Source: a virus. Taken from it: DNA of 45,237 nucleotides. The stretch lies in the UHGV virus genome UHGV-1373231; one strand, given 5' to 3'. Positions within the stretch are counted from its first letter, which is position 1; the number at the start of each line of letters is the position of its first letter. The position numbers and the translations under genes were made by a program. The notes beneath the pieces are model-generated. The model saw only the letters and a list, made by a program, of their open reading frames with translations, was not told the DNA's origin and made no database searches. Positions 16,984-33,142 of this stretch are shown here, one piece after another.

Positions 16984-18747
16984 TTATTTGTATCTGTCTC
17001 TAATAAAATGTTCACCTTTAATTCCGATTTTGTCATACAGATTTTTGATGGTTGTTGCCTGAACTTGTGCCCAGCGTACGTCGGTAGCGTATTGATGATT
17101 ACCTGGATGTCTAGGGTTCCATCGCATACGATAAAGTGTATTTTGACCTTTGCTGATATAACCTTGTCTTACAAATCTAGCGCCGCCAATAATACCTTTA
17201 GCGGGCGTCGTCCAACCACGACTTCTTGCATAAGGGATAGCATTATCAGGGTTCCAATCATACGCACCAATACCAAAGTAGTTATAAACACCAGCACGAC
17301 CACTTGAGAAGTAAGATGTACCATAACCACTCTCAAGGAAGGCATGTGCAATTAAGTATATTTCATTAAGGTTATACTTCTTACAAGCATAAGCAACTGC
17401 TTTACCTTGCCCGGATAAAGAACCTTTACCTCTCAGTATTTTATTAAGTGCTGAAACTGAAATACCTTGATACTTACCTAAATTAAGCATTTGATATTTT
17501 TGCGTTTTACTATTCCATATTTTTAAAGAGTTCATAGCATTAAGGGTTGCCGAATAACTGGCACCATACCAACCATTACCATAGTTGATTTGAGGAGATT
17601 TAGTCATTTGAATAGCTACGGCTCTTTTGAATGAATAAGCACTTCTGGAAATCACCACAGAAGGTTCTTTGCTTCCTTTTTTAGTTGTCGTTGTAGTTTT
17701 GTTTTTGTTAACACTAGAAGCAGAAACAGTAACTTTAATTGTTTTTGTTTTAACTTTATCTTTAGGTATTTCAGAAAGTAATTTCTTACTGTTTTTATAA
17801 AGGTATAAAAGACCATTAATGGTTTTATCTACATTTTTCTTAGGTGGTAACCCATTGAGTGATATATCCCAATCTCCGTGCTCATATACACTTCTCCAAA
17901 TATTAGATGTATCAACTTCAATAGAAGATGGTTTAACTGGTATACCTTGATATTTCATTCTTGAAACTGCTTGCAACATCGTGTGTATTTCATTGACTAT
18001 AAAATCATCTTTACTTGCTGATAAATCTTGGCAAACTTCAATGACAATATTGTCTGGGTGGCTTGGTACTTCGTACATCTCTAATCTCGGTTGCCATATA
18101 TGATTTCTATCTATGAAGTAGTGGGGATATTCTTTGTCAGTTAGATATTTTTCTCTGTCAAAGTATAAGTCAAGCACAGAACACATCGTATTCGCATTTC
18201 TTATAGTCACTTTTTTAGGATTATATCCTCTATCTTTACCTTGTACGATATCGTGAGGGATAAATTCAGGATATGTTGGTTCTTCATCGTCAATAGTGAA
18301 ATTGATGTGTGTTTGTTTCTTTTTGATTGTGACTGTTTTATTGTTGTCTGTTGCCGTATTACTTGAACTACTTGAGCTATCGCTAGGCTTAGGCGGGTTT
18401 TTCTCTGCTTTGTATGGCGGTCTAACAAAATAGATATTCCCGCCGTTACCGTTATAGTTATGATTAACAAAAGCCGCTCTTGATCCACTCCATTGATTAG
18501 AACCCACCCAGTTCTGATCCACACATTTAAAGTGTGATTTATCACTAGGACCAACAACTATTGCAGTATGTCCAGCCCAACCATAAGTCCATACTGCTAT
18601 ATCACCAGGCTTAGGTGTGAAACTAGATGTATTTCTATAAATTTTCCACGATCTATTAGGGTATTGACTACGATTTGCCATAGCATTTGCATTTCCCCAA
18701 GTTCTAAAATGCCAATATCTTTGAAAAATATAGTTAGGTAGATCCCA
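16984..18747 (-). CDS. tail-associated peptidoglycan hydrolase, exon 2 (rest of the CHAP domain plus a C-terminal glucosaminidase domain)
   Basis: Starts WDLPNYIFQRYWHFRTWGNANAM..., the continuation of a CHAP domain. The C-terminus is a mannosyl-glycoprotein endo-beta-N-acetylglucosaminidase domain. Confidence 0.6.
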   Translation of the reverse strand, partial: WDLPNYIFQRYWHFRTWGNANAMANRSQYPNRSWKIYRNTSSFTPKPGDIAVWTYGWAGHTAIVVGPSDKSHFKCVDQNWVGSNQWSGSRAAFVNHNYNGNGGNIYFVRPPYKAEKNPPKPSDSSSSSSNTATDNNKTVTIKKKQTHINFTIDDEEPTYPEFIPHDIVQGKDRGYNPKKVTIRNANTMCSVLDLYFDREKYLTDKEYPHYFIDRNHIWQPRLEMYEVPSHPDNIVIEVCQDLSASKDDFIVNEIHTMLQAVSRMKYQGIPVKPSSIEVDTSNIWRSVYEHGDWDISLNGLPPKKNVDKTINGLLYLYKNSKKLLSEIPKDKVKTKTIKVTVSASSVNKNKTTTTTKKGSKEPSVVISRSAYSFKRAVAIQMTKSPQINYGNGWYGASYSATLNAMNSLKIWNSKTQKYQMLNLGKYQGISVSALNKILRGKGSLSGQGKAVAYACKKYNLNEIYLIAHAFLESGYGTSYFSSGRAGVYNYFGIGAYDWNPDNAIPYARSRGWTTPAKGIIGGARFVRQGYISKGQNTLYRMRWNPRHPGNHQYATDVRWAQVQATTIKNLYDKIGIKGEHFIRDRYK

Positions 18748-18992
18748 CAATATTGTTACGATAGTATTCGCTACTTACTACCTTCTTCATATTTCTATGA
18801 ATGTTCAGACTATATCATCAACCCAATAGGTTGCTCCCCGTTTCCACTCGCTTGAGCGTACGTCTTTCGACTAGTCGTTGCACGTTCCTATCTCTAGGCT
18901 TCGCTCATGATTGCCCTCGTCTTTACGTTAGGGGTTCCCATGAATTAGAGGAGTTTTCATTAATGATTACTCACTAATGGTGCTGAAAGTTA
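18748..18992 (-). mobile_element. group I self-splicing intron (245 nt, no ORF) in the tail hydrolase gene
   Basis: Exon 1 ends in U (..CAGUGU) and the intron ends in G (..AAUAUUG). The intron carries R-like GUGCAACGACUAGUC and S-like GAUAUAGUCUG core elements. Its GC content is well above the flanks. Confidence 0.6.
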
Positions 18993-19109
18993 ACACTGGA
19001 AACCATATCTTCCGTCAATATCTACCCCTTTATGGTTCTTAGCCATCCATTTAGCCCAATTTACAACTTGCGAAGCTGTTGGCTTTCCGCTTTTAGGTAG
19101 TATAGCCAT
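18993..19109 (-). CDS. tail-associated peptidoglycan hydrolase, exon 1 (39 codons, start of the CHAP domain)
   Basis: MAILPKSGKPTASQVVNWAKWMAKNHKGVDIDGRYGFQC ends exactly at the CHAP catalytic Cys. The frame hits TAA immediately afterwards, inside the intron. Confidence 0.6.
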
Positions 19110-30779: not shown

Positions 30780-31169
30780 TTAATGACTTGTGTATTCGAT
30801 ATTTATTGTTATATGTGATAATGCTTGATTACTTTCGATTTCAATAGCTTCGTTGATGTCTAACTGTGGATTAAACAAATTGAAACCATTGAGTTGAATA
30901 TCGTCTAACATGATATTTTGAACTTGCATAAGCAAGTTATCGTTTACCCCTTTGTCATCATCTAACCCCCACAAATGAACAGTAGCAGTAGGATTACCAC
31001 CGAAACTGTCAAAAGTTAACACATTCATGCTATCTGTGGTTGTTTGAATAGCAATAAAAGGATATTTAAGCTCTTGGTTAAGTTCTTTAGTTTCAATTAC
31101 AGGGACACCAATTTCACTAAATTTTTCATATAAGTAGTTGAATAGTTGAAGTTTGGCTGATTGTTTCAT
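30780..31169 (-). CDS. tail completion / tail terminator-like protein
   Basis: Positioned between the gp10-like and major tail genes. Its start overlaps the upstream stop (TAATG). Confidence 0.45.
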   Translation of the reverse strand: MKQSAKLQLFNYLYEKFSEIGVPVIETKELNQELKYPFIAIQTTTDSMNVLTFDSFGGNPTATVHLWGLDDDKGVNDNLLMQVQNIMLDDIQLNGFNLFNPQLDINEAIEIESNQALSHITINIEYTSH

Positions 31170-31295
31170 TACATGCCCCCCGTTTTACCGTTTATTAATC
31201 TCTCGAGGTCCTCTCTGACTTTCCTTGTATATCTTTCATAAACAGGGAACATAAACGTTTCAGGAGCCATGTAGCGTGTACCGTATTCAAGGAAT
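31169..31295 (-). CDS. HK97-gp10-like head-tail protein, exon 2
   Basis: Encodes (I)FLEYGTRYMAPETFMFPVYERYTRKVREDLERLINGKTGGM. It is translationally coupled to the next gene. Confidence 0.55.
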
Positions 31296-32302
31296 CTTTT
31301 TTGTTATCGTAAAGGCTTTTTATCCTCCACTTCTTACTGTCGCCAGTAAGTTCGGCATATCTTTTCAACCAATAAAAAAGACAACCATTATTGGTTGCCG
31401 GACACTCTTGCCAGAATTATATTTATTCATCTGGTATGCTCTACGATGCTGACTAGCCTTTCGCAATCTAGTCAGTTATCTCGGGATTGTCTTTCCAGTA
31501 TTTTTCGATGATATCAGTAAAAGGAATATTCTTTGAGCGATAACTCCAGACTTCATGTCTTGGAATGTTCAATCTTCTAGCCCATTGCATAGTAGTTAAT
31601 CTTAAACCTCTATATTCGTGCCAAACATTATAAGAAGTATTCCACCGTTGTTCTTCTAAAGGTATCCATTTGCAATTACTAGGCTCATAATTACCATTTA
31701 AATCGATTCTCTCTATGCTTAATTCTTCTGAGAAACCATTTTCTTCAGCCCATTTTATGAATGTTTCAACATCATGCCATTCATCACAAACTTTGATACC
31801 ACGTCCACCATATCTAGAATACCTTTCAGATTTAGGATTGTAACAACGTTGCATCATAGCGCGCCAACGTGAATATGCTGGGTGCTTTGTCAAACCATGA
31901 AGTTGCTTGTTTTTTAAGTGTAAATTCTTAAAATCTTGTTCTTTCTTTAAACAACCACATGAATTTGTTGAACCTAATGTATCACTTCTAATTGAAACAA
32001 TGTTTCCGCAATCACATTCGCATATCCAAAATGTTTTTCGCGATGACTTATTTAAATCTATTTCTTTAACTACCAATCTACCGTATCTTTGCCCTGTTTT
32101 ATCTTTAATTCTAGGGTTATCGACAATATTTCCTTTTTCATCTCTTTTAATCATGGTATCACCTCTTAGGTATATTATACCATGTACCAACTTCAAAAAA
32201 CACTAATATATTAAAGAGTTCCCCCGATATTGCCCGGTTATTCACTATGCTGTTACCAACATAGGCGGGATTCCATTTCCCGAATACCCAGCATTAGAGG
32301 TA
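31296..32302 (-). mobile_element. group I intron (1007 nt) carrying a homing-endonuclease gene
   Basis: It splits the conserved gp10 motif YA...E.GT between exons. Exon 1 ends in U and the intron ends in G. Hairpins and a P7-like GGCUAGUC lie in the 3' part. Confidence 0.55.
31468..32154 (-). CDS. intron-encoded putative homing endonuclease / DNA-binding protein
   Basis: An extended -10 (TGGTATAAT) and RBS AAGAGGTGA precede ATG 32154. An N-terminal Cys cluster is followed by HPAYSRWRAMMQRCYNPKSERYSRYGGRGIKVCDEW. Confidence 0.5.
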   Translation of the reverse strand: MIKRDEKGNIVDNPRIKDKTGQRYGRLVVKEIDLNKSSRKTFWICECDCGNIVSIRSDTLGSTNSCGCLKKEQDFKNLHLKNKQLHGLTKHPAYSRWRAMMQRCYNPKSERYSRYGGRGIKVCDEWHDVETFIKWAEENGFSEELSIERIDLNGNYEPSNCKWIPLEEQRWNTSYNVWHEYRGLRLTTMQWARRLNIPRHEVWSYRSKNIPFTDIIEKYWKDNPEITD

Positions 32303-32514
32303 ATAGCATACTTCATATCGCCATTTTTTGTATCTCTGATCATTCTAGCTAAGTTACCTGTCCAGTAACCTTTATTCATTATTGACTTAGCGCTCACAAC
32401 AGTATCTTTAGCGAACTCGCCAGCATTGTTTTTGAGCACTTCGTCAACATCATCATCAATGCTTCTGTGCATTCGATCTAGCTTTCTAATTAGAGCATCG
32501 ATATCTCCAGCCAT
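32303..32514 (-). CDS. HK97-gp10-like head-tail protein, exon 1
   Basis: ...KGYWTGNLARMIRDTKNGDMKYA(I); the final Ile codon is split AU|A by the intron. The unspliced frame reads on to a stop inside the intron. Confidence 0.55.
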
Positions 32515-32816
32515 TATTTAACCTCCTCTGCATAGAATACAGTGTCGTGTTCATAGTCGATACGTTTAGTAATAATGTGTTTTACACCTTTGATATAAGC
32601 ATGTGTAACTTGTGGCTCAAAGTAACCATTTAAACGAATGACATTGATTTGCTTTGTTACATCTCCATATTCTAAACTTGTACGTTGTGGGGACAAAGGA
32701 GAAATGTTACAAGGGACTATATCAAAAACTTTCTCCTTAACATCGTACTTACTTGTTTTAGGGTTGTAACTGCCTTTTGTTTCCTTAGAAAATGAAACGC
32801 GCTTATTGTATCTCAA
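32514..32816 (-). CDS. head closure / head-tail joining protein
   Basis: A 100-aa protein at the expected position. Confidence 0.45.
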   Translation of the reverse strand: MRYNKRVSFSKETKGSYNPKTSKYDVKEKVFDIVPCNISPLSPQRTSLEYGDVTKQINVIRLNGYFEPQVTHAYIKGVKHIITKRIDYEHDTVFYAEEVK

Positions 32817-33142
32817 TAAAATACACCTCTGCCACGTTTACTTGTATTTTTAGGAAACAAAGCGTTAATGACATCCAAATATTCGTCAAAATCATTGTTT
32901 TGGAATGTATTGGAACGACCATCAACACTTTCTTGTGTCATACCTTCAGCGCCAACACGATTAAAGCGTTTGACTGATACTTCTTCGATAATGTATTCCA
33001 ATCGTTCCGGAACTTCTTCTATATCGACAGGAAGCAAACTAATCAAACGCTTTTCTGTATTGTTTATGATTATTTCGAGTAGTTCATCTTGCTTATCATC
33101 ATTGATAGAGAGTAACTTTTTGACATTTTCTAATACTGCCAT
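32813..33142 (-). CDS. head-tail connector (gp6-like)
   Basis: A 109-aa protein at the expected position. Confidence 0.5.
   Translation of the reverse strand: MAVLENVKKLLSINDDKQDELLEIIINNTEKRLISLLPVDIEEVPERLEYIIEEVSVKRFNRVGAEGMTQESVDGRSNTFQNNDFDEYLDVINALFPKNTSKRGRGVFY

Follow-up and report, generated by a model that had tools for sequence, protein, structure and literature searches.

Results

A gp10-like gene in two parts

How can a complete head-tail protein be made from a phage gene whose two parts lie about 1 kb apart? This question is raised by the HK97-gp10-like gene of UHGV-1373231, a viral sequence of 45,237 nucleotides (nt) that was analyzed as a whole (the window; all positions refer to it) and whose source we call a staphylococcal phage. 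On the minus strand, an open reading frame (ORF) of 89 amino acids (aa; 32514..32245) matched the HK97-gp10_like family (PF04883) over profile positions 1-72 of 78, and the C-terminal part of the protein (FLEYGTRYMAPETFMFPVYE...) was found at 31295..31169 in a frame without any start codon, whose stop overlaps the ATG of the next gene, a tail terminator, as TAATG. We found that the locus very probably contains a mobile endonuclease-encoding group I intron in the Gly-79 codon of the HK97-gp10-like tail-completion gene. A preliminary description had presented it as a gp10-like head-tail gene broken by a group I-type intron of ~1 kb with an endonuclease gene, so that a full-length protein would need splicing, and judged from the sequence this central idea appears to be right. 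The gp10-like nature of the 89-aa ORF, the position of the rest of the gene and its overlap with the next one, the G at the 3' end of the intron (G31296) and the 228-aa ORF with its ribosome-binding site (RBS) between the gene parts also held up. The 5' junction did not: it had been set after T32303, 24 nt away from the site after G32279 that is supported here.

The boundaries of the intron were supported by three sources, i.e., intronless alleles, introns inserted at the same site (ROSA, BE28 and viral contig L010) and guide complementarity, and the fold was backed separately by covariation. In the nearest database phage, Staphylococcus phage IME1323_01, the syntenic gene was uninterrupted, and the similarity of exon 1 to it continued 8 residues past ...MKYA, where the preliminary description had ended the exon. 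A search of IMG/VR with the 120-aa spliced protein revealed ~45 contiguous genes of 345-360 nt, which showed 88-99% aa identity over 115-120 residues and all read ...NAGYS(G/S)FLEYGTRYMAPETF... across the junction (an example of the DNA of such an empty allele is ...GCAGGGTATAGTGGCTTTTTAGAATATGG...). An uninterrupted copy with 92% identity was also present in a Staphylococcus pettenkoferi genome. Besides the window, four interrupted alleles were identified, three by the search with the spliced protein and the fourth (L010) by a scan for the 3' motif of the intron described below. Alignment of the joined protein to intronless relatives, a check proposed in advance, was in agreement with a split gene and at odds with the junction proposed along with it, at which the residues TSNAGYSG are lost.

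Because the 3' boundary (G31296/A31295), which was placed by alignment with homologous introns, and the reading frame require it, the end of exon 1 was assigned to G32279 (UCG GG^A UUC; ^ marks the junction). The intron would then be 983 rather than ~1007 nt long, and the predicted product would have 120 aa with a Gly codon at the junction (GG^A) rather than 112 aa with an Ile codon (AU^A). The predicted ligated RNA is ...UAUUCGGG^AUUCCUUGAAUAC (UCGGG^AUUCC) and the peptide across the junction is ...AGYSGFLEYGTR (...YSGFLEYGT...), within an HK97-gp10-like or "tail completion (Neck1)" protein reading ...NAGYSGFLEYGTRYM... This protein matched PF04883 with 37.9 bits over positions 1-78 of 78, compared with 28.0 bits for the unspliced 89-aa ORF and 22.0 bits (positions 1-63) for the 112-aa join, and it matched PHROG 5 with E=8.5e-21. 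The ratio of nonsynonymous to synonymous substitution rates (dN/dS) of exon 2 relative to L010 was ~0.07.

The internal guide and the cleavage-site pair

The guide sequence 5'-GGAAUCCCG, located just 5' of P2, is the exact complement of the ligated exons. The preliminary description had reported no clean P1; however, the 5' exon pairs with the guide as P1 (CGGG/CCCG), and the adjoining part of the guide pairs with exon 2 as P10 (GGAAU/AUUCC). The same layout was observed in ROSA and BE28 (guide CGUAU-GUCGC versus GCGAU^AUACG) and in Lactobacillus phage JCL1032 (guide GUUUU-GCCGUU versus AACGGU^AAAAC), where the junction restores the terminase Walker-A motif GRKNG^KT. Guide and exons therefore differ together between the window, ROSA and JCL1032, i.e., they covary.

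A 5'-splice-site U•G pair was looked for in the lineage of the window and was absent, and P1 contains no U•G anywhere. All five alleles of this lineage (the window, L010, L170, L171 and L173) have G-C at the cleavage site, so that exon 1 does not end in U, as had been stated on the ground that group I splicing requires it. U•G is kept in the other cases checked by hand (ROSA, BE28, JCL1032, L014, L020, L022, L033, L069, L087, L098 and L111). The insertion lies after position 2 of an Ile codon (AU^A) in ROSA-type proteins and of a Gly codon (GG^A) in the lineage of the window. Since position 2 of a Gly codon (GGN) is always G, the last exon base is fixed as G, and a G-to-C change of the guide base has replaced the wobble with a G-C pair. 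In a comparison of the window with L010, 45% of the synonymous sites of the endonuclease gene were different (proportion of synonymous differences, pS, 0.45), while the non-coding ribozyme parts are 94-95% identical. The G-C state is thus old and has existed next to genes that are intact; this speaks against a mutation that disabled the intron recently. We consider the chances about even that this lineage, consisting of the window and four viral contigs, represents a functional endonuclease-bearing group I intron for which cleavage follows a G held in a Watson-Crick G-C pair, with no wobble in P1; after homing into position 2 of a Gly codon, its guide (G to C) and not the protein would have changed. 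If so, 5' splice-site recognition in a widespread family would not depend on the wobble receptor contact as it does in model ribozymes. Apparently kept over substantial divergence, the G-C pair would be among the rare exceptions in nature to the U•G rule, and it offers a simple test of whether this rule reflects chemical necessity or the habit of well-studied ribozymes.

Other 5' sites that end in U (U32283, U32275, AU32270/71 and CCUAU) were rejected; they broke the frame, created a stop or added residues absent from all intronless homologues. Exon GGUAUU could pair with GAUACC close to where the ORF starts, but this option was also dropped, as it was not conserved in L010 and its product would be out of frame. 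Automatic search for P1 and P10 across the family was noisy and only hand-checked cases are therefore cited here. For example, it suggested C(-1) for L098 and L084, for which DnaE protein homology placed the true site at ...GUCGCU^ with U•G.

Structure of the intron RNA

Because the Rfam group I intron model (RF00028) did not match this region, the fold was derived by comparison. We excised loop L5 where an ORF was present, aligned 27 diverse members and tested a structure from P2 to P9.1 in which P3 and P7 cross (Table 1). Standard pairs occupied 91.1% of cells, versus 35-41% when partners were slid by 1-3 columns, although the structure was partly derived from the same 27 sequences and the paired percentages are somewhat favored by this. 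Compensatory double changes were found in 54 of 65 pairs, and none of 500 shuffles reached any of the observed measures. P3, P4 and P7 were paired in all 27 sequences, and the order P3-P4-P5-P5'-P4'-P6-P7-P3'-P8-P7'-P9 was complete. Folding of single sequences also recovered P1, P2, P6, P7.1 and P9 (z-scores -2.6 and -3.8). The fifth pair of P4 is G-C in the lineage of the window and U-A or A-U elsewhere; likewise, the P7 pair across the bulge is G-C in 18 sequences and A-U in 9. The G-C pair beside the P7 bulge was invariant (27/27), as would be expected of the guanosine pocket. The P9/P9.1 motif occurred once in the window and never in shuffles. A UAG in the 3' strand of P2 (32247..32245) stops the exon 1 frame 10 codons into the intron, and the last codons of the endonuclease ORF overlap P5', J5/4, P4' and the 5' strand of P6. 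All introns aligned with that of the window end in GAUAACA+N2-6+G, as do most of the IMG/VR loci described below, whose 3' ends were inferred. One covarying hairpin, P7.1, lies between P7 and P3'; subgroup IA introns have additional helices P7.1 and P7.2 associated with P7/P3, and P7.2 was not identified in this fold. The modeled structure may be described as an IA-like group I intron with a P7.1 hairpin. Related Bacillus cereus prophage introns have been classed as IA1 or IA2 (PMC2504315).

Table 1. Positions of the features of the gp10-like locus, its intron and a second intron in the window.
Feature	Positions	Strand	Sequence or extent	Evidence and remarks
Exon 1, gp10-like / tail-completion (Neck1) gene	32514..32279	-	78 codons + GG (first two bases of the junction Gly codon)	PF04883 match; colinear with IME1323_01 and ~45 IMG/VR alleles through ...NAGYSG
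P1, 5'-exon strand	32279..32282	-	CGGG (32282-32279)	Pairs with CCCG 32269-32266; last base G32279 with C32269 (G-C, not U•G)
Intron	32278..31296	-	983 nt; starts AAAUGG..., ends ...GAUAACAAAAAAG	Intronless alleles; same-site introns; guide complementarity
Internal guide	32266..32274	-	5'-GGAAU-CCCG-3'	P10 part (32274-32270) with exon 2 AUUCC (31295-31291), P1 part with exon 1 CGGG; exact 9-nt complement of CGGG^AUUCC
P2 hairpin	32245..32264	-	CUAUGUUG-GUAA-CAGCAUAG	All 7 pairs covary
P3, 5' strand	32233..32237	-	CCGGG	Pairs with UCCGG 31402..31398; 100% paired, 5/5 compensatory
P4 5' strand, J4/5, P5 5' strand	32213..32227	-	UCGGG (32227-32223), GGAAC, UCUUU (32217-32213)	P4 100%, P5 70.6% paired
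Candidate extended -10	32174..32182	-	TGGTATAAT	TATAAT core kept in ROSA, BE28 and L010; TG only in L010; neighboring bases vary
Homing-endonuclease-like ORF, in loop L5	31468..32154	-	228 aa	RBS AAGAGGTGA at 32167..32159, 5 nt before ATG
P5 3' strand, J5/4, P4 3' strand	31481..31494	-	AAAGA (31494-31490), CAAU, CCCGA (31485-31481)	
P6 hairpin	31449..31475	-	CUGACUAG / CUAGUCAG, conserved 11-nt loop AUUGCGAAAGG	92% paired, 8/8 covary; also in minimum free energy fold
P7, 5' strand	31435..31441	-	G[A]GCAUA, bulged base	Pairs with UAUGCC 31359..31354; 100% paired, 3 covarying pairs
P7.1 hairpin	31411..31434	-	CCAGA / UCUGG, conserved loop UGAAUAAAUAUAAU	99.3% paired, 5/5 covary; also in local fold
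P3, 3' strand	31398..31402	-	UCCGG	Covariation alignment
P8	31366..31397	-	CAACCAAUAA / UUAUUGGUUG	Covariation alignment
P7, 3' strand	31354..31359	-	UAUGCC	J8/7 AAAAGA just before
P9 and P9.1	31309..31349	-	UUACUG-GCGA-CAGUAA; GUGGAGG / CCUUUAC, invariant loop AUAAAAAG	95-99% paired
3' end of intron	31296..31308	-	GAUAACA (invariant), short A/U-rich tail, terminal omega-G 31296	
Exon 2	31295..31169	-	A + FLEYGTRYMAPETFMFPVYERYTRKVREDLERLINGKTGGM + stop	TAATG overlaps start of tail-terminator gene
gp6-like connector	33142..32813	-		PF05135
Minor head / head-closure protein	32816..32514	-		PHROG 348
Tail terminator	31169..30780	-		PHROG 176
Second, ORF-less group I intron	18992..18748 (gene 16984..19109)	-		RF00028 match at 19010..18785

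Two pairings considered for the core were dropped. A long-range pairing of ACUCUU (after P4) with AAGAGU (before P3'), labeled b-b', was not conserved in L098, L045, L050, L014 and L100, and a local P5 explains these bases. AUCGG/GCCGAAC as P7 gave way to AUCGG/xCCGA (P4) and GAGCRUA/UAYGCC (P7), both of which covary. The P8 region has an alternative (31399..31366), being drawn either as a 10-bp stem or as the hairpin CAACCA-AUAA-UGGUUG followed by UCUUUUUU. The hairpin with its U-run scores as an intrinsic terminator and lies ~70 nt after the stop codon of the endonuclease gene. Within its P8, locus L099 contains a GC-rich hairpin and a U-run. This alternative fold may serve as a terminator of the endonuclease transcript or as a folding switch. 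In the minimum free energy fold of 32205..32295, the exon sequence upstream of P1 (GCUG.GGUAUUC) is paired with GAAU.ACC.GGGC, which comprises J2/3 and the 5' strand of P3; such pairing would extend P1 and compete with P3.

Endonuclease and mobility

The ORF in L5 matched PHROG 374 and PHROG 3377, both 'HNH endonuclease', with E=8.9e-71 and 1.5e-44, respectively. By eye, its putative endonuclease motif reads SIERIDLNGNYEPSNCKW, where HNH_3-type proteins have DHID..N...N. A cysteine cluster, CxCDCG...CGC, was noticed at the N-terminus. The ORF and the in-frame exons were intact in all five occupied alleles, and the dN/dS of the ORF (window versus L010) was ~0.09. The RBS was conserved in ROSA, BE28 and L010. 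A promoter of its own for the intron ORF is plausible from the sequence: with regard to the promoter-driven gene of the preliminary description, the -10 motif was indeed located, while no -35 element was found and a sigma-70 scan made no call.

Across the five occupied alleles, intron copies were 94-100% identical, versus 70-96% for exon 1. For example, the window and L171 were 100% identical in the 5' non-coding part and the endonuclease ORF and 99.4% identical in the 3' non-coding part, but 89% identical in exon 1; the corresponding values for L173 were 96-99% for the intron and 80.5% for exon 1. When the window was compared with the nearest empty allele (L130), 9 of 16 nucleotide differences were located within 25 nt of the junction, and the protein encoded there (...NAGYSGFLEYGT...) was unchanged. 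As introns are more alike than their host exons and synonymous changes cluster at the junction, these data indicate homing with co-conversion. Part of the clustering may have arisen from selection for exon-guide pairing. The five occupied and ~45 empty alleles coexist and, with their co-conversion tracts, form a natural data set on homing among staphylococcal phages.

From these features we infer splicing, promoter use and endonuclease activity in the following way. A late transcript would be made from the minus strand, and ribosomes on exon 1 would halt at the UAG within P2. The intron would fold into P1-P9.1, with the guide GGAAU-CCCG binding exon 1 by its last bases (CGGG) as P1 and, at a later stage, exon 2 by its first bases (AUUCC) as P10. 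External guanosine would attack after G32279, G31296 would then fill the P7 pocket, and ligation of the exons would yield UCGGG^AUUCC, encoding the 120-aa protein with ...YSGFLEYGT... The 228-aa HNH-type endonuclease, probably expressed from its own -10 element and RBS, would cut intronless alleles in co-infecting or resident phages, and during repair the intron would be copied into them along with some dozens of bases of the adjacent exons.

Alternative explanations

Several observations weigh against a functional, mobile intron. RF00028, the search model suggested beforehand, gave no match even at E<=10 for the region in the window, its ORF-less relatives or the JCL1032 intron. The endonuclease ORF had no sequence match in Pfam, NCBIfam or PDB, and the usual HNH histidine position reads ERID. 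The promoter consists of a -10 motif only, with no -35 and no call by a two-hexamer sigma-70 scan. P5 was the weakest helix of the fold (70.6% paired), and splicing was read only from DNA sequence. Finally, the last base of the 5' exon is a G that pairs with C, instead of the U of a U•G pair. The U•G wobble has been described as critical (PMC1891724) and the last exon base as nearly always U, exceptionally C (PMC4227781), and for this reason the efficiency of the first step might be poor. The first of these points carries little information, because the JCL1032 intron, which is regarded as proven, was missed as well; this implies that the model does not cover the subfamily.

The cleavage-site pair is also the basis of an unlikely though not negligible alternative, namely that this is a group I relative that has lost efficient splicing along with U•G, with the gp10-like gene in effect reduced to a pseudogene of a prophage that is decaying or depends on a helper, or with the 89-aa product being sufficient. 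That G(-1):C replaces a pair kept by all other resolved members, and one called critical in the literature (PMC1891724), is consistent with such a loss. However, the G-to-C change of the guide base accompanied that of the exon and kept a pair at the cleavage site, which points to selection on P1. In addition, five alleles share the G-C state at an endonuclease pS of 0.45, with exon 2 still intact (dN/dS ~0.07), as are the endonuclease ORF and the ribozyme core (94-95% identity), and IStrons of the BcISt1 type splice after G as determined by reverse transcription PCR (RT-PCR; PMC4227781). It is considerably less probable that there is no intron and that a free-standing endonuclease cassette split the gene, the halves being translated separately and reassembling. 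GenBank records of BE28 and ROSA do list the pieces as separate coding sequences (CDSs) with an 'HNH endonuclease' between them, and an in-frame ATG is present at 31270 (33-aa ORF), but the conserved FLEYGTRY lies upstream of this ATG and has no start codon or Shine-Dalgarno sequence. Moreover, the ORF is less conserved than the ~300 nt of non-coding sequence that surround it, and these have a group I-type fold with extensive compensatory change; the guide exactly matches the ligated exons, and other genes are interrupted in frame by forms of this RNA that have no ORF. The junction of the preliminary description (...GCUAU at 32303, AU^A, 112 aa) deserves hardly any credence. It has U at -1 and G at the intron end and keeps the frame; yet it loses TSNAGYSG, which is conserved in every intronless homologue, its Pfam score falls below that of the unspliced ORF (22.0 versus 28.0 bits), no guide sequence pairs with GCUAU, and same-site relatives have their 5' splice site 24 nt further downstream.

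A family of related introns

The last 170 nt of the intron were 85-89% identical to sequences of Staphylococcus phages ROSA, Rosita, IME1365_01, BE28, BE20, PG-2021_90 and PG-2021_93; for Clostridioides, crAss-like, Lactobacillus and other phages, the identity was 70-80%. When IMG/VR was scanned for the 3' motif GGAUAAAAAGCC-N3-6-CGAUAACA, at least 119 loci were found, and many of those listed were ORF-less elements of ~280 nt. RF00028 detected none of the members tested, whether ORF-less or not. In more than a hundred viral contigs, this family breaks essential phage genes (neck, terminase, tape-measure and polymerase). As the Rfam group I model misses the family, what should be one gene is recorded in these places as truncated 'hypothetical proteins' along with a stray 'HNH endonuclease'. 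The element in the window is of a known kind and its same-site relatives are already in GenBank as split ORFs; what apparently goes beyond the routine, as far as sequences tell, is a large family undetected by Rfam with a lineage that would splice after a G-C pair.

Records with the pattern ...GGAUAAAAAGCC..CGAUAACA..G (L007-L125; L006 is JCL1032) included crAss-like, Clostridium, Streptococcus, Alicyclobacillus and cyanophage ones. The gp10-like motif Y-(A/S)-x-(F/Y)-(L/V)-E-(Y/F)-G-T was a repeated target (L005, L004, L002, L022, L111, L069 and the window at 31291..32282), with insertions at three slightly different positions, each having a matching guide: after position 2 of codon x in ROSA and the lineage of the window, after a Pro codon one position earlier in L022 and L111, and after position 1 of the Tyr codon in L069. 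A DnaE-like polymerase gene was interrupted at ...LGQVDKVRKSVA^KKKPKEF... by an ORF-less intron in L098 (260 nt after junction correction, first measured as 263) and by an ORF-bearing one in L084 (~1.25 kb). We take this insertion site to be the conserved DnaE motif RRAMGKKK.

Comparison with known systems

Classical phage group I introns have an early intron stop codon and an endonuclease ORF in a peripheral loop, are inserted in conserved motifs and show exon co-conversion. The intron in the window shares this general design with T4 td/I-TevI, Twort orf142, SPO1 and B. cereus prophage introns; unlike the classical phage introns, it has no detectable relationship to the RF00028 consensus. The design is also common to introns in structural genes of Cluster J mycobacteriophages (PMC3706429) and Bastillevirinae (PMC11878797).

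The closest systems are the introns of ROSA, Rosita, IME1365_01, vB_SepS_BE28/BE20 and PG-2021_93, which interrupt the same gene ('tail completion / ORF049') within Y-x-x^(F/Y)(L/V)E(Y/F)GT and carry the same ORF family in L5. We confirmed the homologous gene and the position in ROSA, BE28 and PG-2021_93; in the annotated ROSA and BE28 records, an 'HNH endonuclease' ORF lies inside. As in the window, TATAAT and an RBS are found upstream of the ORF. However, ROSA-type introns follow the AU of an Ile codon with U•G (GCGAU/GUCGC), whereas those of the window lineage follow the GG of a Gly codon with G-C (CGGG/CCCG); their P1/P10 guides disagree at 9 of 10 positions and the 5' non-coding part is only ~75% identical. 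The ROSA intron has been listed as a relative of the term-IVS2 group I intron of a B. cereus prophage (Tourasse & Kolstø, PMC2504315).

More distant is the terL intron of JCL1032, which shares its 3' 170 nt with the window and whose record annotates the terL CDS as a two-piece join. Both introns have the same core, including P4', P6 with the AUUGCGAAAGG loop, P7, P7.1, P9, P9.1, GAUAACA and the terminal G, as well as the same P1/P10 guide logic. The JCL1032 intron differs in having no ORF, no separate P2 hairpin, a terL host gene interrupted at Walker-A GRKNG^KT and U•G. Self-splicing has been reported for it (Riipinen & Alatossava 2004, cited in PMC6669764), and going by that citing article its splicing was shown experimentally, whereas self-splicing of the intron in the window would follow by homology only.

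With regard to the 5' splice site, the group B IStron BcISt1 of Bacillus cereus offers a precedent, having RT-PCR-proven splicing after G (PMC4227781). IStrons likewise combine a group I ribozyme with a 5' exon that ends in G, but they encode an IS607 transposase in place of a homing endonuclease and have many GG insertion sites. They also keep U-G shifted by one base (U being the first intron base), whereas A is the first base of the intron in the window, whose P1 lacks U•G altogether.

Gene context and a second intron

The gene order around the intron was connector, head closure, gp10-like, tail terminator and major tail, and was the same in IME1323_01, ROSA and BE28. Elsewhere in the window, a second intron splits a gene for a cell-wall hydrolase with CHAP and glucosaminidase domains at the catalytic-cysteine motif of CHAP. 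Since RF00028 detected it with 101.6 bits and gave no match for the gp10 intron, it is considered a classical intron that has no sequence relationship to the latter. Exon 1 of the hydrolase gene (19109..18993) ends in ...DGRYGFQC and exon 2 (18747..16984) starts with WDLPNYIFQ...; here, the 5' exon ends in U and the intron in G.

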